The notes beneath the pieces are model-generated. The model was not told where the DNA came from and did no database searches. It saw nothing but the letters and a program-made list of their open reading frames with translations. From an uncultured Gammaproteobacteria bacterium (GTDB lineage: Bacteria; Pseudomonadota; Gammaproteobacteria; SZUA-229), in contig CBDULX010000001.1 in the NCBI GenBank assembly GCA_965368175.1, positions 1 to 46,512 of the forward strand: DNA of 46,512 bases, in the 5' to 3' direction. Positions 7,004 to 45,096 of this stretch are shown one piece after another. A program made the translations under genes and the position numbers. Every line of letters begins with the position of its first letter. Position 1 is the first letter of the stretch.

Positions 7004-7321
7004 TTGCCACAGAGTCACGGAGAACACAGAGTTTTTAATATTTAGGGAACCTTTGATTAATTTGTCATTTCGACCAAAGGGACGAGCCCATGGATGGGCG
7101 AAGGTAGAACAATCATGGAGCTATTGTCGAGAAATCTTGCTGTTGATAGCTGTATAAATATCAAGCATTTAAGATCCCTCGGCAACTGCTCCTGCGTTGC
7201 CCTACTACTTACATCCGTGTAAGCATCCATTTAAGTCGGGATGACATATTATGAATTAATCAGAGGTTCCTTAGATCTCTGTGTACCCAATGGGCATAAA
7301 CTCTCTGAGACTCTGTGGCAA
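7004..7321. repeat. REP-like palindromic unit (TTGCCACAGAG family) whose loop carries a nested MITE-like element
   Basis: Left arm TTGCCACAGAGTCACGGAGAACACAGAG (7004-7031). Right arm CTCTGTGTACCC...CTCTGAGACTCTGTGGCAA (ends 7321). The same arms sit back-to-back at 8938-9013. Confidence 0.6.
7044..7272. mobile_element. MITE-like element, long copy (same family as 1832-1964)
   Basis: Ends are AGGGAACCTTTGATTAA (7044-7060) and TTAATCAGAGGTTCCTT (7256-7272). The interior matches the 1832-1964 copy except for two extra blocks (~7082-7130 and ~7181-7234). Confidence 0.6.
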
Positions 7322-7350: not shown

Positions 7351-8931
7351 ATGACTACTCAAAACATTCATGCCGATCGTATCCTTATTCTGGATTTTGG
7401 TTCTCAGTATACTCAGTTGATTGCGCGTCGCATCCGTGAAGCGGGTGTGTATTGTGAGCTTTATGGCTGGGATATGGATGTTGAGGTGCTTAAGGCGTTT
7501 AAACCTTCAGGCATTATCCTCTCCGGTGGCCCGGAGACGGTGACAGAAGAAGAATCGCCCGTTGCGCCGGCTATCGTATTTGAGCTGGGAGTACCGGTGC
7601 TGGGTATTTGCTACGGAATGCAGACCATGGCCGAACAGCTGGGTGGTAAGGTAGAGAGTGCCGATCACCATGAATATGGCTACGCACAGGTGCGCGCTCG
7701 TGGGCACACCCGGTTGCTGAAGGACATCGAAGACCACACCACCGAAGACGGTTATGGCCTGCTGGATGTGTGGATGTCTCACGGCGATCGTGTGGTGGAT
7801 ATGCCTGAGGGTTTCAAGCTCATGGCATCGACCGATTCTGCACCCATCGCGGGTATGGCCAATGAGGAAAAAGATTTTTACGGTGTGCAGTTTCACCCGG
7901 AAGTTACCCATACTCGACAGGGTTTGCGTATTATCCAGCGTTTTGTTCATGACATCTGTGGTTGCGGTAATTTGTGGACCGCCGACAACATTATCGATGA
8001 TTCTATCGAAACTATTCGCAAACAGGTGAGTAAAGAAGAAGTATTGCTGGGCCTGTCCGGAGGCGTCGATTCATCGGTCGTTGCCGCGCTATTGCACAAG
8101 GCCATTGGTGATCAACTGACCTGTGTATTTGTAGATAATGGCTTATTGCGCTATGGCGAAGGTGATCAGGTGATGGCGACCTTCGCCGAGCATATGGGTG
8201 TTAAGGTAATTCGGGTGGATGCCGAGCAACGATTCCTCGATGCGCTCAAGGGTGAAATTGACCCCGAGAAGAAACGCAAAATTATTGGCAATCTGTTTGT
8301 TGATATTTTTGAGGAACAGGCCAGTAAACTGGACAATGCAAAGTGGCTGGCCCAGGGTACGATTTATCCCGATGTGATTGAGTCTGCCGGTGCTAAAACC
8401 GGCAAGGCGCATCTAATCAAGTCCCACCATAATGTAGGTGGCCTGCCGGATTACATGAAACTGAACCTCTGTGAACCATTACGAGAATTGTTCAAAGATG
8501 AAGTACGCAAGCTGGGAGTGGAATTGGGCCTGCCTTATGACATGGTGTATCGCCACCCTTTTCCTGGCCCGGGTCTGGGTGTGCGCATTCTTGGTGAAGT
8601 TAAAAAAGAATACGCCGATATTTTACGTCTGGCCGACCATGTTTTTATAGAAGAGCTGCACAAGCATGAACTGTACGATAAGGTTTCCCAGGCCTTCACT
8701 GTATTCCTGCCTGTGAAATCAGTGGGCGTGACCGGTGACGGTCGCCGTTATCAGTATGTCGTAGCCCTGCGTGCCGTTGAAACCATCGATTTCATGACCG
8801 CCCGCTGGGCCCACTTGCCGTACGATTTTCTGGATCATGTATCACGCCGAATTGTGAATGAAGTGAACGGAATTTCCCGTGTGGTGTACGACATCACCGG
8901 CAAACCCCCGGGCACGATTGAGTGGGAATAA
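7351..8931 (+). CDS. guaA: GMP synthase (glutamine-hydrolysing)
   Basis: 526 aa. GATase domain (GICYGMQ), ATP-PPase P-loop SGGVDSSV, and the canonical C-terminus KPPGTIEWE*. Confidence 0.97.
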
Positions 8932-8937
8932 ATAATC

Positions 8938-9013
8938 TTGCCACAGAGACACAGAGGTCACTGAGGTTTTTATAATTTAATAATTTCTCTGGGTTCTCCG
9001 TGACTCTGTGGCG
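8938..9013. repeat. REP-like hairpin (TTGCCACAGAG family), probable guaA terminator
   Basis: TTGCCACAGAGACACAGAGGTCACTGAGG, an AT-rich loop, then CTCTGGGTTCTCCGTGACTCTGTGGCG. An identical copy lies at 16067-16142. Confidence 0.7.
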
Positions 9014-9028
9014 TGTTAATAATCAACA

Positions 9029-9103
9029 ATGGAAAATAACGACCAACACTGGATGCAGCAGGCCCTGGAACTGGCTGCCAGGGCTGAAGCCGAAGGCGAG
9101 GTT
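9029..9103 (+). pseudogene. 5' stub of tadA (first 25 codons) left at the island's left junction
   Basis: MENNDQHWMQQALELAARAEAEGEV is identical in protein to the start of intact tadA at 16158. Homology stops at 9103. Confidence 0.9.
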
Positions 9104-9419
9104 TCTCGAAATTTTCATAACCAATCAAGTTCTTGAATTCGCCTTCAATTAAATAGCCCTGCATCGATCGAGCAGAGTTTCAAAGGGTTCGATGTCGTCG
9201 AGAAACGAACCGTCGTCGACCACGTGCTGATGGAAATAGACCTGTACAGGCTAAAAAGCAGAATTATATGCAAGTGCCACCCAACCTCCTTCACTGTATT
9301 ATTGAGGATAAAAACAAGTCAACCGGATATATACCTGTAGATGAAAGTTTTGTTTTATAACGAGATCAATCCTGTCAGAATCCCCGGGCTTAAGAAAATG
9401 AAAATCTATATGGAAACGG

Positions 9420-12116
9420 ATGAGTTCTTTTGACTTAGGCCTGCTACCCTCAGGACATCTGCACGGCTTCCCAGTAACAGCGGATGGCGCTGCAGGTAAA
9501 GAGGCTCATATTGCCACCATCGGCAAGGCATTTGCACGTAGCGTGGGGGAAGGTTTGTTCACCCTTGCGGCCAGCAAAAACGGTACAGCTCTCTCCCCAG
9601 CATTGCAATATTGGCGCAATTTTGCCTGCAAATATCTGAGTGAACGCTGCCAGCTGACATCAGCAGATCCGCAGCGGCCTGATCTTCTCGAGCCGCTCAC
9701 AGATGCAGAAACCATGCCTCTGCTCATGAGTGTGCCACCCATGCGCGGAGCCGAGTATCTCTCTGCTGCGGTGCTGCAGGATATCCGCTCCTTGCTGGAT
9801 AGCTGGGTCTGTGAACAGATACAGGCTGTCGGCGGACTTGATGTTCTCCTAGCCAGGAGAGCGCCGCAATGGCATCAGGTGGGACGGGTCTGTTTTCATC
9901 TGGCGGAAAATAAAAGTGATCCGGATTACCCTTTTGCCTTCATGGCAACCTATGTTCCCGAACTTTCAGCGCAGGGACATATTCGCCATCAACCTCTCAG
10001 CCGCGCCTTACAGGAATATGCGGGTGCTAAAAACAAAAAGGCATTAATCCGCCTGCTTTCGCCTGTTCAACTCGCCGCCGAGTCCAGCGCAGTGGTTAAC
10101 GAGCTGGTTGATAGCGGCGACATCTATCATCCGTTGGCCTGGACACCCGGAGAGGCGTATGAGTTTCTCAAAGAAACACCGCTGTACGAGCAGAGTGGTG
10201 TTATCGTCCGGTTACCCAATTGGTGGAAAAAACGTAGCAGACCACGTGTCAGTATCACTATTGGTGGGAGTGCGCAAAAGAATTTCAATGCCGATGCTTT
10301 GCTGGATTTCAAAATGAGTATCGCCCTGGGCGATGAATCCCTCAGCAAAGCCGAGCTCAAGAAACTGATGGCGGAGGATAATGGTCTCGCTTTTATTAAG
10401 GGCCAGTGGGTTGAGGTGAATCAGGAGAAACTGATTGAAGCCATGGCTCACTGGAAAAAGGTGGAGTCTGAAATGGCGAGTGATGGGCTCACGTTTGCAC
10501 AGGGGATGCGCCTGCTGGCCGGAGCACCCGCCGATCTACGGGAGGATGTCCAGGAAGAGAGCAGAGAGTGGTCTTTTATTCAACCGGGGAAATGGCTGGC
10601 TTCACAGCTAGAGGTGTTGCGCTCACCGGCTCAAGTGAAGACCGTCAATCCGGGTAAAGCACTCAAAGCGACTCTTCGGCCCTATCAACAGGAGGGTGTG
10701 AACTGGCTGTGGTTACTCTCTCAGTTGGGATTAGGTGCCTGTCTGGCGGATGATATGGGGTTGGGGAAAACTATGCAGGTCATCTCGCTGCTGCTGGTTG
10801 TAAAAAAGATAGAAAAGCAAAACACGAGAAAACCCTCCCTGCTGGTGCTTCCTGCATCTCTTCTCGCCAACTGGCAAGTGGAACTGGAGCGTTTTGCCCC
10901 CTCACTGCGCTGCCTGTTTTTGCACAGCTCCCGGCTGAGCAAAAAAACGATGAATGGGTTGGCGGATGAAAGTGCCGTCCTGAAGAATATCGATCTGGTG
11001 TTGACCACTTATGGCACACTGATGCGTCAAAATTGGCTACAGGAGCAGCAGTGGCGACTGCTGGTACTGGATGAGGCCCAGGCGATCAAGAATCCGGCCG
11101 CCAGGCAGAGCAAAGCGGTCAAGAAACTCAATGCCGCATCCCGTATTACACTGACCGGTACGCCAGTGGAGAACCATTTATCGGATCTCTGGTCCCTGTT
11201 TGACTTTCTGAACCCCGGTTTGCTTGGAACCGCTAATCGGTTCAAAGGGTTTGTGAAATCACTCTCTGCGCGGGAGAGTGATCAATATGCACCATTACGC
11301 AATCTGGTGAATCCCTATATCCTGCGCCGTCTTAAAACCGACCGCTCAATCATCAGCGACCTGCCGGAGAAGACCGAAGTGTCCTCATACTGTGGTTTGA
11401 GTAAAGTCCAGGCGGCACAATATCAGCAGGCCGTTACAGAACTTGCAAAAGCCATTGAAAATCAGGATGGCATGAAACGGCGCGGTCTGGTGCTATCCTA
11501 CCTGTTACGCTTCAAACAGATTTGTAATCACCCGTCGCAACTGCTGGGTGATGATGTGTATGATCCGCAACAGAGTGGCAAATTTCGGCGTCTGGCCGAG
11601 CTTTGTGAAGAGATAGCCGAGCGCCAGGAGAAGCTTTTGGTCTTTACCCAGTTCCGTGAAATAATCGCTCCGTTGGCAAGCTTTCTGGCGCAACAATTTG
11701 GCCAGCCAGGCCTGGTGTTACACGGAGGTACTCCGGTCAAGCAACGGCAAAAACGGGTTGAGCAGTTCCAGGATGAAGAAGGGCCACCATTTTTTATTCT
11801 CTCCCTCAAGGCGGGAGGAACCGGCCTTAACCTGACACAGGCATCCCATGTAATCCATTTTGATCGTTGGTGGAACCCGGCTGTGGAAAACCAGGCCACA
11901 GACCGAGCCTTTCGCATCGGCCAGAAAAAAAACGTGCTGGTGCATAAATTTATCTGTCAGGGAACAGTAGAAGAGAAGATAGACGTCTTGATCAATGAGA
12001 AAACGGCTCTCGCCAATGATCTATTGGAAGGTGGTGCCAATACACTGCTGACAGAGATGGATAACGAGGCATTACTTAATCTGGTTTCACTCGACATTGA
12101 GAAGACACAAGTCTGA
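9420..12116 (+). CDS. SNF2/SWI2-family DEAD-like ATPase with a long bacterial-type N-terminal domain
   Basis: 898 aa. All helicase motifs are intact: I LADDMGLGKT, II DEAQAIKN, III LTGTPVEN, IV VFTQF, V LKAGGTGLNLT, VI HFDRWWNPAVENQATDRAFRIGQ. The ~430-aa N-terminal region (RVCFHLAE...PFAFMATY) resembles, from memory, the domain seen in SNF2 proteins partnered with SWIM proteins. Confidence 0.9.
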   Translation: MSSFDLGLLPSGHLHGFPVTADGAAGKEAHIATIGKAFARSVGEGLFTLAASKNGTALSPALQYWRNFACKYLSERCQLTSADPQRPDLLEPLTDAETMPLLMSVPPMRGAEYLSAAVLQDIRSLLDSWVCEQIQAVGGLDVLLARRAPQWHQVGRVCFHLAENKSDPDYPFAFMATYVPELSAQGHIRHQPLSRALQEYAGAKNKKALIRLLSPVQLAAESSAVVNELVDSGDIYHPLAWTPGEAYEFLKETPLYEQSGVIVRLPNWWKKRSRPRVSITIGGSAQKNFNADALLDFKMSIALGDESLSKAELKKLMAEDNGLAFIKGQWVEVNQEKLIEAMAHWKKVESEMASDGLTFAQGMRLLAGAPADLREDVQEESREWSFIQPGKWLASQLEVLRSPAQVKTVNPGKALKATLRPYQQEGVNWLWLLSQLGLGACLADDMGLGKTMQVISLLLVVKKIEKQNTRKPSLLVLPASLLANWQVELERFAPSLRCLFLHSSRLSKKTMNGLADESAVLKNIDLVLTTYGTLMRQNWLQEQQWRLLVLDEAQAIKNPAARQSKAVKKLNAASRITLTGTPVENHLSDLWSLFDFLNPGLLGTANRFKGFVKSLSARESDQYAPLRNLVNPYILRRLKTDRSIISDLPEKTEVSSYCGLSKVQAAQYQQAVTELAKAIENQDGMKRRGLVLSYLLRFKQICNHPSQLLGDDVYDPQQSGKFRRLAELCEEIAERQEKLLVFTQFREIIAPLASFLAQQFGQPGLVLHGGTPVKQRQKRVEQFQDEEGPPFFILSLKAGGTGLNLTQASHVIHFDRWWNPAVENQATDRAFRIGQKKNVLVHKFICQGTVEEKIDVLINEKTALANDLLEGGANTLLTEMDNEALLNLVSLDIEKTQV

Positions 12117-12137
12117 TAGAGAAGGGGGATAAATAAA

Positions 12138-13172
12138 ATGCATTATGGTGGATGGCCTCCATATGTGTCGGTCGCACAACGACGCGCCAGGGCAGCCAAA
12201 GGCATGAAAAAGCTGGGCAAGAAGGGCCTGGAGATTGAACCCATAGAGATTCAGGGACGTAAGATCGCTCGCACATTCTGGGGTGAGGCCTGGTGCAATC
12301 ATCTGGAAAAATTTAGCGATTATGAGAATCGCCTACCGCGGGGTCGAACCTATGTACGTAACGGTTCAGTGTGTCATCTTGCCATTTCAAAGGGAAAAAT
12401 CGAAGCCATTGTCAGTGGTTCGGAACTCTACAGAATCAACATTAATATCACCCCTCTGTCCATAAAGAATTGGAAAAACGTGCGCAAACAGTGTGCCGGA
12501 CAAATCGGTTCCATGCTGGAACTGTTGCAGGGGCGTTTTTCTGATAATGTAATGGAGATCGTAACCGATCAAAACAATGGGCTGTTTCCCAGGCCTGACG
12601 AAATAAAACTCGCCTGTGATTGTCCCGACTGGGCCGAAATGTGCAAACATATTGCCGCCGTCTTGTACGGTGTTGGTGCCAGGCTGGATCACCGGCCTGA
12701 ACTACTTTTTCTGCTGCGGAATGTTGATCATGAAGCGCTGATTGCAGCGGAGCTGGATATACAGTCAGCAACATCCAGAAAAGGGAAACGGCGGCGGCTG
12801 GCGGTAGCTGATCTTTCCTATGTGTTTGGTGTGGAGTTGGAAGAGTCCGTCAAACCCGGTCACAAAAATAGTACAGTCAGCAAAAAAACGGCCAGGAAGA
12901 GAAGTAAGAAGAAGACAGTTAAAAAGAAGATTGCCCTAAAGACGAAGAAAAAAGCATTTACACCGACAGCAACGGCAGTCACCAGGCTACGTAAGCGATT
13001 TGGGATGAACGCATCTCAGTTTGCAAAGTTGGTTGGTGTGAGTCCGCAGACGGTAAATAGCTGGGAAAACGGCAGTGGTAAGCTCAATCTCCGCCAACGT
13101 ACCACAGATGCGCTTACCCAGGCGGCTGAACTTACGCCGGAGCAGGCCATGAGAAAGTTAAAACGTAGCTGA
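12138..13172 (+). CDS. SWIM zinc-finger protein with a lysine-rich linker and a C-terminal XRE-type helix-turn-helix
   Basis: 344 aa. SWIM signature CDCPDWAEMCKH (CxCxnCxH). The N-terminal FWGEAWCNHLE...RLPRGRTYVRNGSV is typical of bacterial SWIM proteins. The linker is KKTARKRSKKKTVKKKIALKTKKK. The C-terminal LRKRFGMNASQFAKLVGVSPQTVNSWENGSGK is a classic XRE HTH. It starts 21 nt after the SNF2 stop, with a GGGGGA SD. Confidence 0.85.
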   Translation: MHYGGWPPYVSVAQRRARAAKGMKKLGKKGLEIEPIEIQGRKIARTFWGEAWCNHLEKFSDYENRLPRGRTYVRNGSVCHLAISKGKIEAIVSGSELYRININITPLSIKNWKNVRKQCAGQIGSMLELLQGRFSDNVMEIVTDQNNGLFPRPDEIKLACDCPDWAEMCKHIAAVLYGVGARLDHRPELLFLLRNVDHEALIAAELDIQSATSRKGKRRRLAVADLSYVFGVELEESVKPGHKNSTVSKKTARKRSKKKTVKKKIALKTKKKAFTPTATAVTRLRKRFGMNASQFAKLVGVSPQTVNSWENGSGKLNLRQRTTDALTQAAELTPEQAMRKLKRS

Positions 13173-13175
13173 ATT

Positions 13176-13248
13176 GTAGTAGCCCCGACTTGACCTGACC
13201 GTTACCGGTTTTGCGGAAGCGACTGTCCGGTCAAGTCGGGACTACTAC
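13176..13248 (+). terminator. long stem-loop just after the SWIM-HTH gene (20-bp stem, 33-nt loop)
   Basis: GTAGTAGCCCCGACTTGACC (13176-13195) pairs with GGTCAAGTCGGGACTACTAC (13229-13248) with one mismatch. It begins 4 nt after the stop codon. There is no U-tract, so it may be a structural or recombination site rather than a simple terminator. Confidence 0.45.
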
Positions 13249-13308
13249 ACATGAGTTTGTTACACATAATGTGATTTGTGAGGGTTGAGGCGAGGACTGG
13301 CTTCACCA

Positions 13309-13494
13309 CCACCCAGGTGGATTATCTCTGCCCGAAGGGGGTTGGTTTGAGGGTGGTCGATTTTATGTGAAGAGGGCCAAGGTCGCGAATGAACAATGAC
13401 AATGGTATTTTTCATGGTATTGACACTTGCGACCACCGTAAAACCCGCGCCACTACTGGCTTTTTGCGGCTTATTTACAATCGAATGGGAGTAG
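13309..13494 (+). repeat. internal island junction: a copy of the island right-arm sequence followed by a decayed guaA 3'-end
   Basis: 13309-13410 aligns at roughly three-quarters identity with 15826-15924 plus 15987-16004. This includes an exact 18-mer ACAATGACAATGGTATTT (13393-13410 = 15987-16004). Downstream, 13477-13494 reads ACA ATC GAA TGG GAG TAG = TIEWE*, the conserved GuaA C-terminus. Confidence 0.6.
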
Positions 13495-13755
13495 GGTTTT
13501 TTAATAAATTATTGTTTATTAAATGAAAAATGCTATGACTGAGAGTTTAAATCAAATGGTCAACGAGTTGGCACTTTGTCCTAGGACAAATCGTGCTGGA
13601 ACCCTGGATTTTATTAGGTGTAACAGCAGGAAACGTCAAGTAAGTGAGTTACCAATTGTCGAACTCAAGGTGCTGGGCGGGTAAGCCGCGACTGGATACA
13701 GCATTTATACTTCTATACATAAAAAAGGACAGTATATTGGTCATAAATAGCCCTT

Positions 13756-13850
13756 GTGACTGTTTTCGTGGTCATTCCGCTTGACATTTGTTTAAGGAAT
13801 GGCTATTAATATAGCCATAAAATAATTTAGTGACTGTTTTCGTGGTCATT
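13756..13850 (+). promoter_or_regulatory. hipBA promoter/operator region
   Basis: TTGACA (13781-13786), a 17-nt spacer, then TATTAA (13804-13809). It is flanked by two identical 21-bp repeats GTGACTGTTTTCGTGGTCATT (13756-13776 and 13830-13850). The -10 lies inside the dyad GGCTAT-taat-ATAGCC (13801-13816). Confidence 0.6.
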
Positions 13851-13864
13851 GTCAGGTGGGCCAG

Positions 13865-14197
13865 ATGGTGAAGGACAGAACATATTCGCGATATACGCGT
13901 GAGGCTGCGGCCTTGCTGGCCAAGCAGGTCCAGCTCGGACGCAAGCAGCATAAGTGGACCGAGCGTGAGCTTGCGGACCGGGCCGGCATCTCGCGGGCGA
14001 CGCTCCAGAAGATCGAAAAGGGTGACCTGAGCGTGGCCATCGGGCTTGTGTTCGAGGTGGCGGCCCTGGTGGGTGTGACCTTGTTCGATGAGGAGCGCAC
14101 CGCGCTTGCCGCTCACCTTGCCCGCACCGGTGACAAACTGGCCTTGTTACCGAGCGCCGTACGCAAGCGCAGAAAGACGGTGCATGATGATTTCTGA
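13865..14197 (+). CDS. hipB: XRE-family HTH antitoxin HipB
   Basis: HTH WTERELADRAGISRATLQKIEKGD. The stop overlaps the hipA start by 14 nt. The ATG at 13865 is preceded by AGGTGG (13854-13859). The track start at 13856 is an in-frame GTG. Confidence 0.85.
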   Translation: MVKDRTYSRYTREAAALLAKQVQLGRKQHKWTERELADRAGISRATLQKIEKGDLSVAIGLVFEVAALVGVTLFDEERTALAAHLARTGDKLALLPSAVRKRRKTVHDDF

Positions 14198-15488
14198 GGG
14201 ATCCTACAGCGAGGCCTTTGTCTGGGTGTGGTTGCCTGGTGAAGCTCAACCGATCGTGGCAGGCAGGCTGGCTGCCGAAGGCGATCAACTGATCTTCAAT
14301 TACGGTAAGAGCTATTTGGCTCGTGATAATGCCATTGCGCTCTATCATCCCGAGTTGCCCTTACAGGCCGGGCTTATTCCATTGCTTCCGGGTCTAAGCA
14401 TGCCTGCCTGCATCCGCGATGCCTCGCCGGATGCCTGGGGGCGGCGTATTATCATCAATAAAAAGTTCGGCCTGAAAGGCGCGAAGGCTGATGCAGGCCA
14501 GCTTGATGAGTTGACCTATTTGCTGGAGTCCGGCTCGGACCGTATCGGGGCTCTGGATTTTCAGCGTTCTGCCACCCACTATGTTCCGCGCGGATCGGTG
14601 AATGCTTCTCTAGATGAACTCGTGCAAGCCGCCGAGTTCATTGAGAAAGGCCTGCCGCTGAGTCCGGAGCTCGATCATGCTTTGCAACACGGTACTTCGC
14701 TCGGTGGTGCGCGGCCCAAGGCGCAGCTTGAAGACGGTGACAAGAAGTATATCGCGAAGTTTTCTTCGACGACTGATCTTTATAGCGTTGTAAAGGCTGA
14801 GTTCATCGCTATGCGCCTGGCGTCACAGGCCGGGCTTAACGTTGCGAGTGTGTCGCTGACCAGATCTTTGCACAAAGACGTTCTACTGATCGAGCGCTTT
14901 GACCGCGTGCATACCGGGGCCGGGTGGCAGCGCAAGATGATGGTCTCGGCGCTCACCATGTTCGTGCTCGATGAAATGATGGCGCGCTATGCCAGCTATG
15001 AAGACCTCGCTGAAATTATCCGTCACCGCTTTACTGATGCACCCGCCACGCTGCGGGAGCTCTACTCTAGGCTCGTCTTCAACATCCTCTGCGGCAATAC
15101 CGACGATCATGCTCGCAATCATGCCGCATTCTGGGATGGAGAAATACTTACGTTGACCCCAGCTTATGATATCTGTCCGCAAGGGCGTACAGGCAATGAA
15201 GCCTCGCAGGCCATGCTGATCGCCGGTAACAACCGAATGAGCTGCATATCCTCTTGCCTGGAGGCGGCGGCACAGTTTCTTTTGCCGCGCGCGGCGGCAA
15301 TCGATATCATCGAAAGCCAGCTCACCAGCATCATTGATCACTGGGATGCGATCTGCGATGAAGCGTCGCTCAGCGCTACCGATCGTGGGTTTCTCTGGGG
15401 GCGCCAATTCCTGAACCCCTATGCCTTTGATAACCTCAATGGCGATGCTACACACCTGAAGGCGCTTGCTGATAAGGCGAGCTTTTAG
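14184..15488 (+). CDS. hipA: type II toxin HipA-family serine/threonine kinase
   Basis: 434 aa from the ATG at 14184. HipA motifs are SLGGARPKA and the catalytic loop NTDDHARNHA. The N-terminal coupling-domain-like region is VWLPGEAQPIVAGRL. The track start at 14088 is an upstream extension overlapping hipB. Confidence 0.9.
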   Translation: MMISEGSYSEAFVWVWLPGEAQPIVAGRLAAEGDQLIFNYGKSYLARDNAIALYHPELPLQAGLIPLLPGLSMPACIRDASPDAWGRRIIINKKFGLKGAKADAGQLDELTYLLESGSDRIGALDFQRSATHYVPRGSVNASLDELVQAAEFIEKGLPLSPELDHALQHGTSLGGARPKAQLEDGDKKYIAKFSSTTDLYSVVKAEFIAMRLASQAGLNVASVSLTRSLHKDVLLIERFDRVHTGAGWQRKMMVSALTMFVLDEMMARYASYEDLAEIIRHRFTDAPATLRELYSRLVFNILCGNTDDHARNHAAFWDGEILTLTPAYDICPQGRTGNEASQAMLIAGNNRMSCISSCLEAAAQFLLPRAAAIDIIESQLTSIIDHWDAICDEASLSATDRGFLWGRQFLNPYAFDNLNGDATHLKALADKASF

Positions 15489-15825
15489 ATTTTGCTCATG
15501 GCTTGTGGGCATCAGCCGAAGCGGACGCTGCATAGGTGGTTTTTGTGGAGTTTCGGTTGATTCTTACCGCTCTTATCGAATCGGGGTAAAACCCAATTTT
15601 CCGGGCACATATGATAAAGGTCCTGGACTTTTCTGGATTCCTGGTTATAGCCTTTTCAATAAGTACTCAGTCATTGGACAGATCATGTCGTAACCCTGGA
15701 CTTTATTAAAAGAGAACCTCCGCTCATGATTACATGAATGTTAGCATTGCTTAGGGAGCTTGGAGGAAGACCGACACGAGCATTTGCAAGCGTTGTAAAT
15801 CTCGATACCGGTATGCTATATACTT

Positions 15826-16000
15826 CCACCCTGGCGGATTGAATCTCTACCCGAAGGGGATCGATTTGATAGGCGTTATCGGCTCGATATGATGAGGGCC
15901 AACGTCGTGAGTGGACAATGACAACAAGAAATTCCAATTTTAGTTGTTTGGTCATATAGCTAATTAACGTACTATATATCAATAACACAATGACAATGGT
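15826..16000 (+). repeat. right arm of the island (homologous to 13309-13410), interrupted by a short insertion
   Basis: See the alignment with 13309-13410. ACAATGACAA occurs at 15915-15924 and again at 15987-15996, bracketing 62 nt that are absent from the internal copy. Confidence 0.55.
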
Positions 16001-16060
16001 ATTTCCCGTGTGGTGTACGACATCACCGGCAAACCCCCGGGCACCATCGAGTGGGAATAA
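16001..16060 (+). pseudogene. 3' stub of guaA (last 19 codons + stop)
   Basis: Same amino-acid sequence as the end of intact guaA, with two synonymous differences (ACC/ACG, ATC/ATT). No upstream guaA sequence precedes it. Confidence 0.9.
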
Positions 16061-16232
16061 ATAATCTTGCCACAGAGACACAGAGGTCACTGAGGTTTTT
16101 ATAATTTAATAATTTCTCTGGGTTCTCCGTGACTCTGTGGCGTGTTAATAATCAACAATGGAAAATAACGACCAACACTGGATGCAGCAGGCCCTTGAGC
16201 TGGCTGCCAGGGCTGAAGCCGAGGGCGAAGTC
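16001..16232 (+). repeat. right copy of the 232-bp direct repeat (guaA 3' stub + spacer + start of intact tadA)
   Basis: Matches 8872-9103. The guaA stub at 16001-16060 encodes ...[19 protein letters not shown]. Confidence 0.95.
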
Positions 16233-16619
16233 CCGGTGGGTGCTGTCATCGTCAAAGATAATCAGCTTATTGCTGAAGGCTGGAACCATCCCATCCGGTC
16301 TAATGATCCTTCCGCCCATGCAGAAATGATGGCCATGCGTGCGGCAGGGCAAATTTTAAACAATTATCGATTAATGGATACCACACTGTATGTCACCCTT
16401 GAACCCTGTGCCATGTGTGTTGGGGCTATGGTTCATGCACGTATCAAGCGGCTGGTTTTTGGTGCCTATGATCCTAAAACAGGCGCTGCGGGTAGTGCCC
16501 TGGCGCTGATTCAGTCTGATGTACATAATCACAGAATTGAGGTTACAGCAGGTGTGATGGAGGCTGAGTGTCGGGACAGTTTGCAGGCATTTTTCAGGAA
16601 CAGGCGTAAAAAACAGTAA
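16158..16619 (+). CDS. tadA: tRNA-specific adenosine deaminase
   Basis: 153 aa. Deaminase zinc motifs HAEMMA and PCAMCVGA. Confidence 0.93.
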   Translation: MENNDQHWMQQALELAARAEAEGEVPVGAVIVKDNQLIAEGWNHPIRSNDPSAHAEMMAMRAAGQILNNYRLMDTTLYVTLEPCAMCVGAMVHARIKRLVFGAYDPKTGAAGSALALIQSDVHNHRIEVTAGVMEAECRDSLQAFFRNRRKKQ

Positions 16620-27179: not shown

Positions 27180-28808
27180 TCATTCAATTAAATCCGGCTG
27201 CAACACGGTGTTAACAGGCGGCCTGGAGTTGTCTGTATCCGGATAATCCAAAGTGTAATGTAAGCCTCGACTCTCCTTTCTTTGCATGGCGCAGCGGATA
27301 ATCAGATCAGCTACCATTGCTAGATTACGAAGTTCGATCAGATCACTGGTGATTCGAAAATTGCCATAGTACTCATCAATTTCAGACAACAACAGATTAA
27401 CCCTGCGTTTTGCTCGTTGCAGTCGTTTGTCGGTTCTGACGATACCAACATAATCCCACATGAAGCGGCGCAACTCATCCCAGTTATGGGACACTACCAC
27501 TTCTTCGTCTGAGTCGGTGACTCGGCTTTCATCCCAGTCGTTGATCTGTTCCCATTGTGCCGGTAAGGCCATTTTCTGGTTAATATCTTTGGCTGCAGAC
27601 TGTGCAAATACCAGGCATTCCAGCAGCGAGTTGCTGGCCATACGATTAGCACCATGCAGGCCGGTAAAAGATGTTTCGCCAATGGCGTAAAGCTTATCTA
27701 TATTGGTGCGACCATTTAAGTCGGTGACCAGGCCGCCGCAGGTGTAATGGGCGGCAGGTACGACCGGAGCCGGCTGTTTAGTGATGTCTATGCCAAACTC
27801 CAGGCACTGAGCATATACGGTCGGGAAGTGGGATCGGATAAAGGCTGCCGGCTTGTGGCTAATATCCAGATACATGCAATCCGCACCCAGTCGTTTCATT
27901 TCATGGTCAATGGCGCGGGCCACAATGTCACGGGGTGCCAGCTCGGCTCGTTTGTCGAATCGGTCCATGAATCTTTTGCCATTGGGCAGTTTCAACAGGC
28001 CGCCCTCACCACGCATGGCTTCGGTGAGCAGGAATGATTTGGCTTCCGGGTGAAACAGGCAGGTGGGATGGAACTGCATGAATTCCATATTCGCCACATT
28101 ACAGCCAGCTCGCCAGCCCATTGCTATACCATCTCCGGTGGATCCATCAGGGTTGCTGGTATACAGATACACTTTACTGGCACCGCCAGTAGCCAATACA
28201 ACAAACCGGGCCTGGAAGGTTTCCACACGATCTTTCTTTCTGTCCAGTACATAGGCGCCCACGCAGCGATTGTGATCCAGACCCAGCTTATCACCGGTAA
28301 TCAGGTCTATTGCAATGTGATGAGGAAACAGCTCGATATTGGGTGTATGTTGAACGTGGTTGAGTAAGGTGGTTTCCAGGGCCTGGCCGGTAGCATCGGC
28401 AGCGTGGATAACACGGCGGTGGCTATGGCCACCTTCACGGGTCAGGTGAAAATGGCGACTGCCGTTCTGGTGCTGGTCGGTGGTAAAGGGTACACCGAGA
28501 TCCGCCAGCCAGTCGATGATTTCCGGGCCATGTTCGATGGTAAAACGCACTGCCTGTTCGTTACAAAGCCCACCGCCGGCATTCAGGGTGTCGGTAATAT
28601 GGGATTCAAATGAGTCCTCTTTGCGTAATACCGCCGAAATTCCACCCTGGGCGTAATAGGTGCTAGTGGAACTTTCCCGGTCTTTGGCAATCACAGCTAC
28701 TTTGGTGTGGCGTGCCAGAAGCAGCGCCAGGCTCAATCCTGCGGCACCACTGCCAATAATAAGAACATCGTGGCGATATGATTGTCTATTGTCAGTAACT
28801 TTGGACAT
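27180..28808 (-). CDS. nadB: L-aspartate oxidase
   Basis: 542 aa. FAD-binding motif [16 protein letters not shown]. It is flavoprotein-family throughout and divergent from rpoE, as in E. coli. Confidence 0.95.
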
Positions 28809-30219: not shown

Positions 30220-31161
30220 ATGCGGATTTTGATACTGTGTCTGATATTCACTCCTTTTGTCAGTCATGCGGAGGAGGTGGAATCATGGTTGGACAAAATG
30301 AGCCAGGCCATGAAAACCACCAATTTCGAAGGTACCATGATTATTCGCCAGGCAGATCAGTTACAGGCTCTTAATGTGCGCCACGGCATGAATCAGGAAG
30401 GGTTCTGGGAGCGAATGGAGTCGTTGAATGGAGAAGCCCGGGAGATCATTCGTCACAATTCCAAAGTTACGACTATTTTCCCTCAACGTAAGCTGGTGAC
30501 TGTGAGTCATGAATCAGAACCCATGTCATTACACAGTCGTTTGCCCTCCAATATGGAGCTATTCAAAAAACTTTATGCTGTGAAAGCCACAGGATTTGAT
30601 CGGGTAGCCGGCCGTCACGCACGTATTCTGGAGCTGCAGCCGCTGGACAATTTCCGCTATGGCTACAAATTCTGGCTGGAAAAAGAATCCGGTTTATTAC
30701 TGAAATGTGATTTACTGGATGAACAGAAACAGGTTGTAGAGCAGTTGATGTTCAGTGAGCTTAATATCCTGGAACAGCTGCCGGAGAATATTGACAGGAT
30801 TCCCAGTGAAGTGAGCACCTACAAGGTGGTTGATCTTGATATGGGCAAGATCAATCAGGTCAAAAGTTCCTGGGTGGCCAGTCAGTTGCCGCAGGGATTT
30901 TCTATGACGGGTAATAATATCCGTCCCAGTGTTACAGGTAAGGGCATACGTCATCATATAATGTTTAGTGATGGCATGGCTTCGGTCTCAGTATTTATTG
31001 AAAAACATCATCCAGATGAAATTATGCTGAAGGGTGTTTCTCGAATGGGGGCACTGAATGCCTACAGTTTTCATCTCAACGATGATCATATAACGGTGAT
31101 TGGTGAAGTCCCGGTGGCTACGGTTCGCCTCATTGGGCAGTCAATACAGGAACAGCCATGA
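30220..31161 (+). CDS. rseB: sigma-E regulatory protein RseB/MucB
   Basis: 313 aa. Has a signal peptide and the conserved rpoE-rseA-rseB order. Starts 1 nt after the rseA stop codon. Confidence 0.85.
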   Translation: MRILILCLIFTPFVSHAEEVESWLDKMSQAMKTTNFEGTMIIRQADQLQALNVRHGMNQEGFWERMESLNGEAREIIRHNSKVTTIFPQRKLVTVSHESEPMSLHSRLPSNMELFKKLYAVKATGFDRVAGRHARILELQPLDNFRYGYKFWLEKESGLLLKCDLLDEQKQVVEQLMFSELNILEQLPENIDRIPSEVSTYKVVDLDMGKINQVKSSWVASQLPQGFSMTGNNIRPSVTGKGIRHHIMFSDGMASVSVFIEKHHPDEIMLKGVSRMGALNAYSFHLNDDHITVIGEVPVATVRLIGQSIQEQP

Positions 31162-35951: not shown

Positions 35952-35969
35952 TTAGAGAGAGTGTTTGTA

Positions 35970-36356
35970 ATGATGAAAAAACAAAGCGGACTAACACTTA
36001 TTTCCTGGCTCATTATTATCAGTCTGGCGGGTATTCAGTTAGTGCTTGCTATGCGTATTTTCCCAGTATACCTGAGCTTTTCTACAGTCAAGTCCATCAT
36101 GAATGATGTGCAAACCAAGCAGGAGTTCAGGAGCAAAACACCCAGGGAAATTTTAGGTTATATTCATACAACATTAAATATAAATAGTATTTATGAATTG
36201 CAAAAGAATAAAAATGCTTTTAAATTCAAGAGAACTGGCGATGGTCTACAGTTAAATCTTCATTATGAAGAACGTGGCCCGATTCTCGGTAACCTGGATT
36301 TTGTTGCTACCTTTGAATATCAAATTATAATACCCGGAAGTACTAATTTTAATTAA
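35970..36356 (+). CDS. DUF4845-like small membrane-anchored protein
   Basis: The N-terminal TM anchor is MMKKQSGLTLISWLIIISLAGIQLVLA. The gene is in the conserved position between lepB and rnc. The track GTG start at 35961 is also possible. Confidence 0.6.
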   Translation: MMKKQSGLTLISWLIIISLAGIQLVLAMRIFPVYLSFSTVKSIMNDVQTKQEFRSKTPREILGYIHTTLNINSIYELQKNKNAFKFKRTGDGLQLNLHYEERGPILGNLDFVATFEYQIIIPGSTNFN

Positions 36357-38909: not shown

Positions 38910-38974
38910 CCTTGCCACAGAGGCACAGAGCATGCAGAGAACATAATTAAATACTCTGTGCCTCTGTGGCAAGG
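38910..38974. repeat. REP-like hairpin (TTGCCACAGAG family), probable recO terminator
   Basis: Perfect 21-bp stems CCTTGCCACAGAGGCACAGAG (38910-38930) and CTCTGTGCCTCTGTGGCAAGG (38954-38974) with a 23-nt loop. Confidence 0.7.
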
Positions 38975-43242: not shown

Positions 43243-44064
43243 ATGACCAGCCAGTTTACACCCGAAGAATTTGAAAATTTCCGGCAATTTCTTGAACAGG
43301 CTTGTGGTATTGTGCTGGGTGAAAATAAGCATTATCTGGTATCTAGTCGACTTAATCGCATGATGCGCGAAAAAAATATACCAACACTTCAGGAACTGGT
43401 TAATCAATTAAGTCAGTTGCTAAACTCCAGTCTAAAGAATAGTGTAATCGAAGCGATGACTACCAATGAAACACTCTGGTTTCGCGATACCTATCCATTC
43501 GAAGTGTTGTCTAAAACGATTTTTGAAGGCAGCAAGCTGGCGAAAAAAAATAATTTAAAAATCTGGTCGGCAGCCTGTTCTTCAGGGCAGGAGCCTTATT
43601 CTATTAGCATGGTGGCCGACGAATTTATACAGCATAATCCATTTTTCAGGGTTGATATAGTCGCCACCGATATCTCTCCGGCCATTCTGAATGATGCCAA
43701 AGAAGCTAAATATGATGCTCTGGCTCTGGCTCGTGGTTTATCGGAAGAACGCAAGCGACGTTATTTCTCAGCTATAGGTAATTTAAGCCAGGTTAATTCA
43801 GAAATAAGATCAAGAGTAATATTCAAAGAAAACAATTTACTTCAGAGCTATTCCAGTTTAGGTAAATTTGATGTGATTTTCTGTCGTAATGTATTGATTT
43901 ATTTTTCTGCAGAATCCAAGTCCGATATCCTTAATCGAATGGCGAGCTCACTGAATCCGAGGGGATATCTGATGCTCGGCGCGTCAGAGTCTATTTCACA
44001 GTATTGTGATGCCTTCGAAATGGTTCGTGCCAGCACTGGTGTGGTTTACCGACTTAAAAAATAA
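43243..44064 (+). CDS. cheR: chemotaxis protein methyltransferase CheR
   Basis: 273 aa. Has the SAM-binding motif IWSAACSSGQEPYS and the later motif FCRNVLIYF. Confidence 0.93.
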   Translation: MTSQFTPEEFENFRQFLEQACGIVLGENKHYLVSSRLNRMMREKNIPTLQELVNQLSQLLNSSLKNSVIEAMTTNETLWFRDTYPFEVLSKTIFEGSKLAKKNNLKIWSAACSSGQEPYSISMVADEFIQHNPFFRVDIVATDISPAILNDAKEAKYDALALARGLSEERKRRYFSAIGNLSQVNSEIRSRVIFKENNLLQSYSSLGKFDVIFCRNVLIYFSAESKSDILNRMASSLNPRGYLMLGASESISQYCDAFEMVRASTGVVYRLKK

Positions 44065-44068
44065 AAAT

Positions 44069-44123
44069 ATGGTTAATTGTTTATGGTTAAAAAAACCATT
44101 AACTACTAACGATGAACCATTAA
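44069..44123. repeat. AT-rich hairpin repeat (ATGGTTAA family), second copy
   Basis: ATGGTTAATTGTTTATGGTTAAAAAAACCATTAACTACTAACGATGAACCATTAA is related to 26288-26345. Confidence 0.45.
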
Positions 44124-44142
44124 TATTTATTTATTGCCACCA

Positions 44143-44160
44143 GCGGCAAAAAATTGCCGC
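44143..44160 (+). terminator. small hairpin after cheR
   Basis: GCGGCAA-AAAA-TTGCCGC, followed by a moderately T-rich stretch. Confidence 0.35.
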
Positions 44161-44221
44161 TCTAATTCCCTTTATCTAAACCTGATATCCCTAAGCTATT
44201 GAAAAGTCATTGATAATTAAT

Positions 44222-44239
44222 TTGGCATGGGCTTTGCAT
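44222..44239 (+). promoter_or_regulatory. sigma-54 promoter for flgBCDE
   Basis: TGGCAT (44223-44228), 5 nt, then TTGCA (44234-44238). This gives the exact -24 GG / -12 GC spacing, 28 nt upstream of the flgB ATG. Confidence 0.75.
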
Positions 44240-44265
44240 TTCCATTTGCAACGCGGGAGTAAACC

Positions 44266-44658
44266 ATGCCGATTAACTTTGATAAAGCATTTGGAGTTCA
44301 TGATGACGCACTTTTGTTATTTGAGCGTCGAACTCGTTTGCTGGCAGAAAATATAGCCAATGCGGATACTCCGCAATATAAGGCTCGAGATATTGATTTC
44401 GATTCCGCATTAAGTCAGGCAAAAACCGATCAGGTTAAGCTGGCATCAACACAGCCAGGACATATGGCTTTATCCACAGAACCTTATAACGAGTATCTTA
44501 AATTTCGGATCCCGGATCAAAGTTCGGCCGATGGTAATACGGTGGATATACAGAAAGAGCAGGCAGCATTTGCTGAAAATAATATTCGTTATCAGACTAC
44601 CCTGACTATTTTGTCACGTCGTATCAGTGGTCTGGTAAATGCGTTCAAGGGTGAATGA
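44266..44658 (+). CDS. flgB: flagellar basal-body rod protein FlgB
   Basis: 130 aa. Has the rod-protein N-terminal pattern LLAENIANADTPQYKARD. Confidence 0.92.
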   Translation: MPINFDKAFGVHDDALLLFERRTRLLAENIANADTPQYKARDIDFDSALSQAKTDQVKLASTQPGHMALSTEPYNEYLKFRIPDQSSADGNTVDIQKEQAAFAENNIRYQTTLTILSRRISGLVNAFKGE

Positions 44659-44674
44659 GTGAGAGGCATAGATT

Positions 44675-45091
44675 ATGTCAGTGTTTAAAATATTTGATGT
44701 AGCGGGTTCCGGTATGAGTGCACAGATGCTCAGACTGAATACAGTTGCCAGTAATCTGGCCAATGCTGAAACCATGGCCAGTAAGCCAGGTGATGTGTAC
44801 AAGGCGCGTCATCCGGTATTTGAAACGGTTTTGAATGAAGTTGCTGGTGGACAATCCAGCGCAACAGTAAAAGTGTCTGAAATCGTCGAAAGCGATACGC
44901 CGGCAATGCCTCATTATATGCCCGGACATCCACTGGCGAATGAAGAAGGTTATGTGTTTAGCCCTGGTATAAATGCAGTGGAAGAAATGGCGGATATGAT
45001 TTCTGCATCCCGCAGTTATCAGAATAATGTTGAAGTGATGTCGACAGCTCGCGAGTTGTTGTTGAGAACATTACAACTTGGCAGATCATGA
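44675..45091 (+). CDS. flgC: flagellar basal-body rod protein FlgC
   Basis: 138 aa. SGMSAQMLRLNTVASNLANAET and the C-terminal SRSYQNNVEVM. Confidence 0.93.
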   Translation: MSVFKIFDVAGSGMSAQMLRLNTVASNLANAETMASKPGDVYKARHPVFETVLNEVAGGQSSATVKVSEIVESDTPAMPHYMPGHPLANEEGYVFSPGINAVEEMADMISASRSYQNNVEVMSTARELLLRTLQLGRS

Positions 45092-45096
45092 GGTGA

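Follow-up and report, generated by a model that had tools for sequence, protein, structure and literature searches.

A 7.1-kb integrase-less insert between guaA and tadA that may be a decayed two-cassette array at a GIsul2-type attachment site

A 7.1-kb insert separates guaA from tadA in the window (i.e. the whole 46.5-kb stretch of DNA that was analysed). With little better than even confidence, we interpret this insert as a decayed, integrase-less array of two cassettes in the guaA 3′-end attachment site of P4-type integrases of the GIsul2/PIME family, built by accretion in trans and overlaid by a Campbell-type layer. The following features were found at its two ends:

7351–8931, + strand: guaA (GMP synthase), whose 3′ end is supplied by the left repeat copy (Pfam GATase and GMP_synt_C).
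8866–9103, + strand: left direct-repeat copy with the guaA 3′ end, the spacer and the tadA′ stub (repeat search, alignment, script).
8920–8927, + strand: att core GAGTGGGA of GIsul2-family islands, in the last guaA codons (sequence reading; core published in PMC9376610).
8940–9012, + strand: REP-like hairpin in the 97-nt spacer (inverted repeat; RNA fold −32.6 kcal/mol, z = −3.6).
9029–9103, + strand: non-functional tadA′ 5′ stub of 25 codons (alignment, sequence reading, script).
15995–16232, + strand: right direct-repeat copy with the guaA′ stub (15995–16060), the spacer and the tadA 5′ end (repeat search, alignment, script).
16049–16056, + strand: second att core GAGTGGGA, in the right repeat (sequence reading; PMC9376610).
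16158–16619, + strand: intact tadA (tRNA adenosine deaminase), completed by the right copy (Pfam MafB19-deam / dCMP_cyt_deam_1).

The repeat search paired 8866–9102 with 15995–16231 (97% identity, offset 7129), and alignment with a script gave direct repeats of 238 nt at 96% identity (8866–9103 versus 15995–16232). An earlier sequence-only reading had recognized the direct repeats and their offset, but its length of 232 bp placed the left edge 6 nt too far inward. Its observation that guaA is finished by the left copy and tadA by the right copy, with two stubs left over, agrees with Pfam and the alignment. The two copies differ at nine positions rather than the seven counted earlier; all nine are synonymous third positions and none lies in the spacer (8932–9028), as had been noted. 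The mismatches (left/right) are 8868 AAC/AAT, 8871 GGA/GGT, 8916 ACG/ACC and 8919 ATT/ATC in guaA, and 9067 CTG/CTT, 9070 GAA/GAG, 9094 GAA/GAG, 9100 GAG/GAA and 9103 GTT/GTC in tadA. Only ~24% of random changes in the 141 coding nucleotides would be synonymous, with a probability of ~3e-6 for nine out of nine (script). If the mismatches were spread evenly, the probability of none in the spacer would be ~0.009. The spacer is simply very conserved, because L002, the nearest other species, has only 1 nt changed in it despite a divergence of 10–20% in the flanking genes. Inverted-repeat ends related to the REP-like hairpin of the spacer also occur at 7006/7307 and 38914/38958.

Divergence between the copies is ~6%, compared to ~15% from the nearest species. 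Because of this difference and the exclusively synonymous changes, the stubs appear to be foreign. This supports the view that they evolved as coding sequence in another lineage and were then imported, as had been proposed instead of a local duplication. In the nearest species the guaA–tadA site is indeed empty, with a single copy of the segment; an empty site of the same species, for which a search had likewise been suggested, was not present in the collections searched, and neither was a circular form of the island. A tandem duplication of the guaA end and tadA start, followed by insertion of the island at the novel joint and divergence of the copies in place, is compatible with the geometry alone. 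However, non-functional stubs are expected to gather random changes, in contrast to the pattern observed, and none of the relatives found carried the duplication alone, without an insert. Together with the single copy in L002, the synonymous-only mismatches effectively refute such a local duplication, which we regard as very improbable. Nonsynonymous mismatches, spacer mismatches and bare duplications in relatives, named earlier as signs against import, were looked for and none was found.

The island structure is not an assembly artefact. Repeats of this length break short-read assemblies, and both ends of one Logan contig (L085, window 9037–16030) lie within the repeats, from the left to the right copy. 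Yet independent assemblies of at least three other samples contain this structure: the ENA contigs L082, L083 and L084 span all of it, including both junctions, at 99.87% identity, and an assembly or binning chimera is therefore exceedingly improbable. Furthermore, L086 and L087 map to island sequence immediately past the left repeat, and L001 spans the right junction. In L083, positions 9067 and 9070 of the left copy show the alleles of the right copy, which itself has not changed. This non-reciprocal exchange shows gene conversion between the repeat copies in the population.

Between the repeats, the island has the following parts:

9104–9247, no strand assigned: unique left-end segment, in which a minus-strand ORF begins (ATG at 9164; sequence reading).
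9248–13172, + strand: module 1, with a conserved upstream region, a SNF2/DUF3670 helicase and a SWIM/HTH_3 protein (Pfam).
13175–13249, + strand: terminator-like hairpin 3′ of module 1 (inverted repeat, 28-nt arms, 89% complementary).
13309–13400, + strand: segA, the conserved sequence of an element end, sharing 76% identity with segB (local alignment).
13401–13494, + strand: internal GIsul2-type attR-like unit, c2 (nhmmer, E = 7e-23).
13756–13776 and 13830–13850, + strand: two identical 21-nt repeats in the hipB promoter region (repeat search).
13856–15488, + strand: module 2, hipB-like HTH and hipA kinase (Pfam HipA_C and Couple_hipA; HTH_3 in the L082–L084 gene calls).
15826–15994, + strand: segB (15826–15924) with a 72-nt extension, the right end of the island (local alignment).

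The sequence GAGTGGGA at the guaA 3′ end is the published core of GIsul2 (PMC9376610), and the same attB is used by PIMEs (bioRxiv 10.64898/2026.01.12.698999). Its presence in both repeats fits the island hotspot of GIsul2 type that had been noted earlier for the guaA 3′ end. The c2 unit consists of ATGGTATT-TTTC-ATGGTATT, a hairpin and then TTTACAATCGAATGGGAGTAG; its core, GAATGGGA at 13483–13490, is degenerate. The nhmmer model for c2 was built from related contigs; in plasmid R485 the same model detected the attLR (27773–27868, E = 3e-17) and attR (31065–31151, E = 3e-12) of GIsul2. By this measure c2 is homologous to attR and attLR of GIsul2 itself, and it resembles them in its two ATGGTATT sites, a variable hairpin and then TTTACAATCGAGTGGGA. 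The window contains no P′-arm (c1) unit. Because the P′ arm is missing and the internal core is degenerate, the array may no longer serve an integrase as a substrate.

Divided by c2, the island is a composite of two modules, one with the SNF2 and SWIM/HTH proteins and one with HipBA. In module 1, the helicase (9420–12116) and the SWIM and HTH_3 protein (12138–13172) were identified by Pfam. From 9248 onward, L088–L091 match this module at 85% nt identity, and its homologues in other loci come after a UvrD-like helicase. The segment to its left (9104–9247) had no match in any fetched locus, and the minus-strand ORF crosses the junction with tadA′ 20 codons in; we read this junction (tadA′ to 9104) as a putative illegitimate join. 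Module 2 comprises the hipB-like HTH (13856–14197) and the hipA kinase (14184–15488). A Thiodiazotropha locus (L099) has hipBA at 90% nt identity, also between guaA and tadA and accompanied by the same att unit as the internal unit of the window, while its guaA is only ~70% nt-identical (another genus). The region of the 21-nt repeats (13756–13850) is kept in L099 and L100, and these repeats are predicted to be HipB operators, which we consider probable. SegA and segB align with a score of 79, compared to a maximum of 30 for shuffles. The c2 units of L134 and L157 have a left flank homologous to segB with its extension, and the first 10 nt of the right repeat (AATGGTATTT) are also the start of the internal c2 unit. 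In these two loci, segB, 72 nt and AATGGTATTT run on into an att unit, but in the window into the true guaA 3′ end; the right junction is recombinant.

Searches for a recombinase were negative, and the earlier statement that none lies between the repeats stands. Pfam found no recombinase domain in any island ORF, and the suggested six-frame HMM check for degraded fragments, run on the three non-coding island stretches, gave none at E ≤ 1. In the rest of the 46.5-kb window, Pfam found none in another 20 ORFs (≥120 aa), a scan that left out five long ORFs at 35961–36356 and 43243–45771. There was also none in the L082 gene calls, and a motif scan of the window that took in every six-frame stretch ≥150 aa was negative as well.

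One might suppose that a circle with guaA′-spacer-′tadA integrates and excises by RecA-dependent recombination only, a site-specific recombinase never being involved. The 238 bp at 96% identity with chromosomal attB-type arms on both sides, the missing recombinase and the gene conversion between copies are in line with this supposition. In contrast, it accounts neither for c2, nor for the GAGTGGGA core present in each copy, nor for the position of the right repeat's left edge at a conserved element end (segB, 72 nt and AATGGTATTT) that is joined to att units elsewhere, and it gives no reason why hipBA and this type of att unit should recur together between guaA and tadA of another genus. We consider it distinctly unlikely. 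The first three of these features also led us to abandon the earlier idea of a homology-driven element of unknown kind.

Related loci do contain integrases. The first 21 nt of c2 had >120 exact matches in metagenome contigs, where cassettes with defence or toxin-antitoxin genes are strung from guaA to tadA with the same att arms around each. In these contigs, guaA...GAGTGGGAGTGA is followed by a P′ arm containing ATGGTAT repeats, then the cargo, then a P arm that ends in GAGTGGGAGTGA, and finally the next cassette or tadA. The cargo includes Fic+DUF6880, TOTE, AbiE and AAA_14/DUF4143 by Pfam, and HigBA-like and Gabija-like genes assigned by N-terminal sequence only. The majority of these cassettes are integrase-less defence or toxin-antitoxin units. 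A P4-type integrase was found in three related loci (L198, L148 and L063), two of them among the >120 contigs. Proteins with Phage_integrase and Arm-DNA-bind_3 domains directly adjoin the att arms in L198 and L148, and L063 has an integrase homologue between guaA and tadA. The L198 integrase is 87.6% identical to that of GIsul2.

With GIsul2/PIME islands, which are integrative and mobilizable, the window island shares its attachment site in the last guaA codons. In contrast to them, it has no int, alpA, rep, relaxase, oriT module or P′ arm, it carries a SNF2 pair and HipBA instead of resistance genes, and its outer repeats are 238 bp of chromosomal sequence, compared to ~19 bp in canonical GIsul2 integration. 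A further parallel is CR2-sul2, an integrase-less unit between attLR and attR of GIsul2 that is mobilised in trans by Int in recA- E. coli (PMC9376610), and so are the cis-mobilizable elements (CIMEs) and their site-specific accretion (reviewed in PMC5704250). These likewise lack an integrase, have flanking att sites that belong to a resident integrase family, and are arranged in tandem with other units. The window island differs in that one of its three cores is degenerate and its outer arms mimic attB rather than attL or attR; its mobility is putative.

By analogy with CR2-sul2, a precedent at this very site for the recombinase in trans that had earlier been raised as an option, the array was most likely built by site-specific accretion. 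Both modules would have been inserted successively by an integrase made elsewhere, module 1 closing with segA and the attR-like unit, and module 2 with segB and the right repeat. The 238-bp repeats would be a second layer, in which both outer element-type att arms were swapped for chromosomal attB-region DNA of a sister lineage that is ~6% divergent. Most simply, this would take one Campbell-type crossover between a circular form with captured host DNA and an empty guaA-spacer-tadA site, made either by RecA across the 238-bp homology or by an integrase in trans at the GAGTGGGA core. We infer this order of events and the circular form, and either enzyme might have made the last crossover.

A Campbell-type origin of the repeats, as proposed earlier, remains a good explanation because the duplicated arms on either side consist of chromosomal (attB-type) sequence and gene conversion takes place between the copies in the population; as the whole story it falls short, since c2 splits the island. 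The long attB-type arms are not explained by an integrase, and their origin would take at least two illegitimate joins. They need imported guaA′-spacer-′tadA DNA and homologous recombination, by a Campbell crossover or by two patches. In the latter case, without a circular intermediate, a canonical attL...attR array would have taken up DNA of an empty-site relative twice. The left patch would be anchored by a long stretch of homology in guaA and closed by an illegitimate join between tadA codon 25 and 9104; the right patch would be anchored likewise in spacer-tadA and closed by an illegitimate join at the 10-nt microhomology AATGGTATTT. AttB DNA would thereby have taken the place of both the P′ arm and the inner P arm. 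Homology-facilitated illegitimate recombination, attributed to work by de Vries and Wackernagel in 2002, is reportedly an established route in transformable bacteria. The microhomology exactly at the right junction, the ORF start cut 20 codons in at the left junction, the absence of the expected P′ arm and the foreign stubs with synonymous-only differences all suit two patches. However, this scenario demands two independent rare events, with donor DNA ending by chance 238 bp apart to overlap exactly, whereas a single crossover delivers both stubs at once. We consider two patches rather unlikely.

For the preferred Campbell-type layer, systems with captured host DNA, such as lambda dgal/bio-type aberrant excision products and plasmids with a chromosomal fragment, offer a model: circular DNA with chromosomal homology yields, by one crossover, direct repeats of the whole homologous stretch. 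Unlike in those systems, no circular form, packaging or replication function is evident in the window island. Prophages 21 and e14 in icd of E. coli, known from Hill et al. in 1989 and Campbell et al. in 1992, are said to bring an alternative 3′ gene end with synonymous differences. The window island resembles them in its long copy of the 3′ end of the target gene, silent differences only and a displaced stub. Those prophages, however, encode their own integrase and duplicate the gene end only, whereas here the spacer and the beginning of tadA are duplicated too, each copy being a hybrid in principle. Rather than a new kind of element, the island would be an atypical form of a mobile element whose kind is known, at a site that is already well known.

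The island between guaA and tadA is bounded by direct repeats of 238 nt at an offset of 7129, so that the repeats described in the sequence-only reading are real and slightly longer than first stated. The two genes, identified by Pfam, are each completed by one copy of the repeat:

7351-8931, guaA, completed by the left copy
8866-9103, left copy of the repeat
9029-9103, tadA' stub, within the left copy
15995-16232, right copy of the repeat
15995-16060, guaA' stub, within the right copy
16158-16619, tadA, completed by the right copy

The two copies differ at nine sites, all of them synonymous third-codon positions (four in the last 22 codons of guaA and five in the first 25 codons of tadA), and are identical over the 97-nt spacer. 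The earlier description of these differences as purely synonymous and absent from the spacer was correct, but its count of seven was too low. As a random change in these codons has a chance of about 24% of being silent, the probability that nine out of nine are silent is ~3e-6. Divergence between the copies is ~6%, compared with ~15% to the nearest species. The restriction to synonymous differences supports the claim that the stubs were imported rather than made locally.

The island is not an assembly artefact. Its structure recurs at 99.87% identity in three ENA contigs that stem from other samples (L082-L084). Of the Logan contigs, several cover the island or stop within the repeats, and the right junction is spanned by one further contig (L001). 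Gene conversion between the repeat copies is visible in L083, where the left copy has the right-copy alleles at 9067 and 9070 and the right copy is unchanged. Both copies in L084 show a T>G change at 8978; this may stem from assembly collapse of the identical centre and was therefore left out of the evidence.

The nearest other species in GTDB (L002; GuaA 95% and TadA 89% identical) has an empty site, consisting of guaA, 97 nt and tadA. The spacer of the window (8932-9028) matches that of L002 (7181-7277) at 96 of the 97 positions, whereas the genes on either side differ by 10-20 nucleotides per 100 nt. Because this spacer is nearly identical despite diverged flanks, the lack of differences between the spacers of the two repeat copies is less telling. 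Its conservation could reflect a regulatory element or homogenisation by recombination. Similar conservation between the window and L002 is seen at the ends of the guaB-guaA spacer, and a stretch of ~290 nt within that spacer, lying between two REP- or MITE-like ends, is missing from L002. These ends belong to a small family of inverted repeats with the termini GCCACAGAG...CTCTGTGGC, located at 7006-7018 (minus strand) and 7307-7319 (plus strand), 8940-9012, 16069-16141 and 38914-38970. Exact-protein look-ups of guaA and tadA revealed no empty site in the same species, as every contig returned came from the same population and carried the island. An exact search of JGI metagenomes with the guaA-end and spacer sequence gave no match, and flanking repeats were found in none of the other GTDB genomes in which guaA and tadA lie 1-7 kb apart.

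Pfam identified two modules in the island:

9420-12116, SNF2/DUF3670 helicase (module 1)
12138-13172, protein with SWIM and HTH_3 domains (module 1)
13856-15488, hipB-like HTH gene (HTH_3) upstream of a HipA kinase (HipA_C, 1e-47; Couple_hipA) (module 2)

Module 2 has the layout predicted for a HipBA type II toxin-antitoxin system, in which a kinase with a coupling domain follows an overlapping HTH gene. Recombinase domains were absent from the ORFs of the island, searched with Pfam, and from six-frame translations of its three non-coding stretches, as the sequence-only reading had claimed. The scanned or annotated genes in the flanks likewise include no recombinase (the Pfam scan covered all but five long ORFs at 35961-36356 and 43243-45771), and a scan for recombinase motifs in every long six-frame stretch of the window found none. 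The flanks contain housekeeping genes (xseA, guaB, rsgA, nadB, rpoE-rseABC, degP, lepA, lepB, rnc, era, recO) and flagellar and chemotaxis genes. Furthermore, Pfam matches in the island are confined to SNF2, SWIM/HTH, HTH and HipA, with no repA or repC, oriT, relaxase or trb genes.

Homologues of the SNF2 pair, 75-87% identical, are present in many Gammaproteobacteria, where the pair follows a UvrD-like helicase at unrelated loci near ParE/PhD, DruA and IS21 genes. This helicase (~930 aa) is normally the first gene of a three-gene cassette of which the SNF2 and SWIM/HTH genes are the last two (L092 7177-13745; L095 749-7270). The window retains the upstream region of the cassette (9248-13172) but not the helicase. 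PADLOC detected no complete defence system in the island: the matches of the SNF2 protein are limited to the helicase parts of ZorD, DpdE and DrmD, whose partner genes are absent, and the SWIM/HTH protein has no meaningful match. Rfam and tRNA scans of the island returned only a sub-threshold psRNA2 match. The left-end segment 9104-9247 is unique, without a match in any fetched locus. Two 44-nt direct repeats, 77% identical, bracket hipBA (13573-13616 and 15665-15708), and another copy lies upstream of hipB in L100 (1948-1993), where an IS66 transposase adjoins hipBA; these repeats may mark the boundary of a hipBA cassette.

The middle and right end of the island contain three related features:

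13309-13400, segA, just before the internal unit
13401-13494, internal attR-like unit, AATGGTATTTTTCATGGTATT ... hairpin ... TTTACAATCGAATGGGAGTAG (nhmmer E = 7e-23)
15826-15924, segB, just before the right repeat and 76% identical to segA

The internal unit carries the P-arm att sequence known from GIsul2 attR and attLR (two copies of ATGGTATT, a hairpin, TTTACAAT and the core), with GAATGGGA at the core position. Its start resembles guaA codons 505-508 of the right-repeat copy and its end the last codons of guaA. A plain decayed guaA stub was considered and rejected, because after the first 18 nt it shows no significant likeness to the true guaA end; the sequence is in fact a conserved att unit. 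The 18-mer ACAATGACAATGGTATTT occurs both mid-island and at the right repeat. The 94-nt unit is also present in Candidatus Thiodiazotropha (L099), where it follows a hipBA of 90% identity and again lies between guaA and tadA; there it ends in GAGTGGGAATAG and thereby differs from the guaA end of that genome itself. The right junction of the window island retains only the first 10 nt of the P-arm unit. Each repeat contains one core, 5'-GAGTGGGA-3', at the guaA 3' end (8920-8927 and 16049-16056). A P' arm with ATGGTAT/ATACCAT repeats after the core is absent: the left core is followed by the REP-like spacer and the tadA' stub instead, and the model of the P'-arm unit (c1) matches only a 25-nt motif inside the internal P-arm unit (c2).

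A minus-strand ORF of 135 codons (ORF135; 15683-16090) runs antisense through the guaA' stub and segB; by tblastn, some of its segments show 73-78% conservation in L134 and L157. It was rejected as an element-encoded small protein, with itself as its only homologue and no Pfam or PADLOC match. ORF135 is probably conserved DNA rather than a gene, and we read the conservation of segA and segB as acting at the DNA level.

The att units of the window belong to a family of arrays between guaA and tadA, for which the 21-mer ATGGTATTTTTCATGGTATT gave more than 120 exact matches in metagenome contigs. In the c1 context, guaA ...ATCGAGTGGGAGTGA is followed by a 69-nt AT-rich spacer, ATGGTATT-TTTC-ATGGTATT, GATACCATG plus CATGGTATC, and cargo. 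In the c2 context, cargo is followed by CATGGTATTTTTCATGGTATT, a variable hairpin and TTTACAATCGAGTGGGAGTGA, and then by tadA, more cargo or c1 directly. At internal junctions c2 leads directly into c1, which matches the order predicted for tandem insertion at the terminal codons of guaA (P arm, core, P' arm). The 21-mer itself was discarded as crossover core, since these junctions fit a crossover at GAGTGGGA instead. According to Pfam, applied to a sample of the cargo, the arrays encode Fic+DUF6880, TOTE primase-helicase, AbiE and AAA_14/DUF4143 proteins; N-terminal sequence alone indicated HigBA-like, Gabija-like and type I R-M genes. This cargo is typical of conflict islands.

P4-type integrases are present at the site in at least three loci: directly after guaA and five ATGGTAT sites in L198, directly after a c2 end in L148, and between guaA and tadA in L063. 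The count is a lower bound, because the motif screen of all loci was crude and Pfam covered only the cargo sample. The integrases of L198 and L148 have Phage_integrase and arm-DNA-binding domains (Pfam). An integron-like array was rejected: the window has no intI, the c2 ends are by eye neither complementary nor inverted repeats, and the enzymes found are P4-type. In L212, an integron-type integrase (10636-11463, minus strand, oriented; Phage_integrase + Phage_int_SAM_4, IntI-like C-terminus) lies ~440 nt past the last c2 unit and is a neighbour outside the array. At attL of L198 (60-200, oriented) the guaA stop codon is lost, and the frame continues for ~24 codons into the island. Right of the core, many arrays have GAGTGGGAGTGACCGGCACTGGCTGGCAATG... 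(L115, L125, L170, L175, L099 6129-6160; also the GIsul2 plasmid R485, L221 27861-27900). It resembles terIS of ISCR2 in GIsul2 (PMC9376610), yet no adjacent ISCR2 was seen in the environmental loci, and could represent an att arm instead of a transposon end. In L166 (237-416), a 60-codon guaA' stub (67% identical) precedes c1 and, judged from hit coordinates only, seems detached from any full guaA, so that the window may not be the only place with long guaA stubs at cassette boundaries.

The L198 integrase is 87.6% identical to that of GIsul2 (R485, pAB3 and other plasmids). The annotated region of R485 is a canonical GIsul2 (int, alpA, repA, repC, trbJKL, ars, resG, ISCR2, sul2). Here, the c2 model, which also gave the match at 13401-13494 of the window, matches both the attLR upstream of ISCR2 (E = 3e-17), ending in ACAATCGAGTGGGAGTGACGGGCACTGGC, and the attR (E = 3e-12), and ATACCAT and ATGGTAT sites also occur upstream of int. 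The att site of GIsul2 comprises 19 bp with the core GAGTGGGA at the guaA 3' end; in recA- E. coli, its Int alone suffices to excise and integrate GIsul2 as well as CR2-sul2, a unit without an integrase, and it also recombines attR with attB (PMC9376610). PIMEs share the GIsul2 attB (bioRxiv 10.64898/2026.01.12.698999).

The window island shares with GIsul2 and PIMEs the guaA 3' core and a P-arm att unit, but lacks a P4-type integrase and AlpA of its own, the P' arm, and any mobilisation or replication module. Like CIMEs and CR2-sul2, it has att sites of an established integrase family at its ends but no recombination or transfer genes; the window island contains two intact cores and one internal attR-like unit. 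Movement of such a unit by an integrase in trans has a precedent only in CR2-sul2 (PMC9376610). Given the missing integrase, P' arm and mobilisation genes, we place it, on its sequence features, among att-flanked units of the CIME/CR2-sul2 kind, unusual in that its repeats mimic attB. The island is a decayed, integrase-less member of the GIsul2/PIME att system rather than a new class that works without a recombinase.

Site-specific accretion, in which an integrase acting in trans adds units that lack one, is the best explanation of its modular anatomy, given the internal attR-like unit, the conserved element ends, and a hipBA that recurs with this unit at the identical site in a second genus. 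The 238-bp repeats are not the product of a GIsul2-type integrase. At the right junction, segB, 72 nt and AATGGTATTT are fused to the true guaA 3' end, at a point where L134 and L157 continue as c2. With the left core followed by the spacer and tadA', both outer junctions therefore carry chromosomal (attB-type) DNA, and the restriction to synonymous differences shows its origin in a sister lineage. A circular form carrying guaA'-spacer-'tadA could have met an empty site, where one crossover, either RecA-dependent or at the core, would yield both stubs together. As such a crossover predicts, the repeats extend over the whole region of homology and carry two sets of parental alleles. The main alternative is that two homology-anchored patches formed the repeats; the 10-nt microhomology at the right junction argues for it, as does a minus-strand ORF start (ATG at 9164) that is cut 20 codons in at the left junction. 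The Campbell-type single crossover of the sequence-only reading is still plausible for the last step.

These results are of modest practical value: searches for such arrays can use the 21-mer ATGGTATTTTTCATGGTATT and the core GAGTGGGA as convenient markers. An island that looked like an orphan is linked here to the GIsul2/PIME attachment system, known above all for disseminating sul2 and further resistance genes. The data also suggest that this att site and its arms structure arrays of defence and toxin-antitoxin cassettes without integrases in uncultured bacteria from the environment. Tentatively, and with the odds in our judgement against it, marine and sediment Gammaproteobacteria might harbour a large undescribed population of such cassettes, parasitising GIsul2/PIME-type integrases in integron-like guaA-tadA arrays; the window island would then be a further step, in which the att arms were swapped for a copy of the host attB region and the island could pass into and out of related chromosomes by homologous recombination without an integrase. 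If long attB-type repeats do allow such movement, they would offer a simple escape from integrase dependence.
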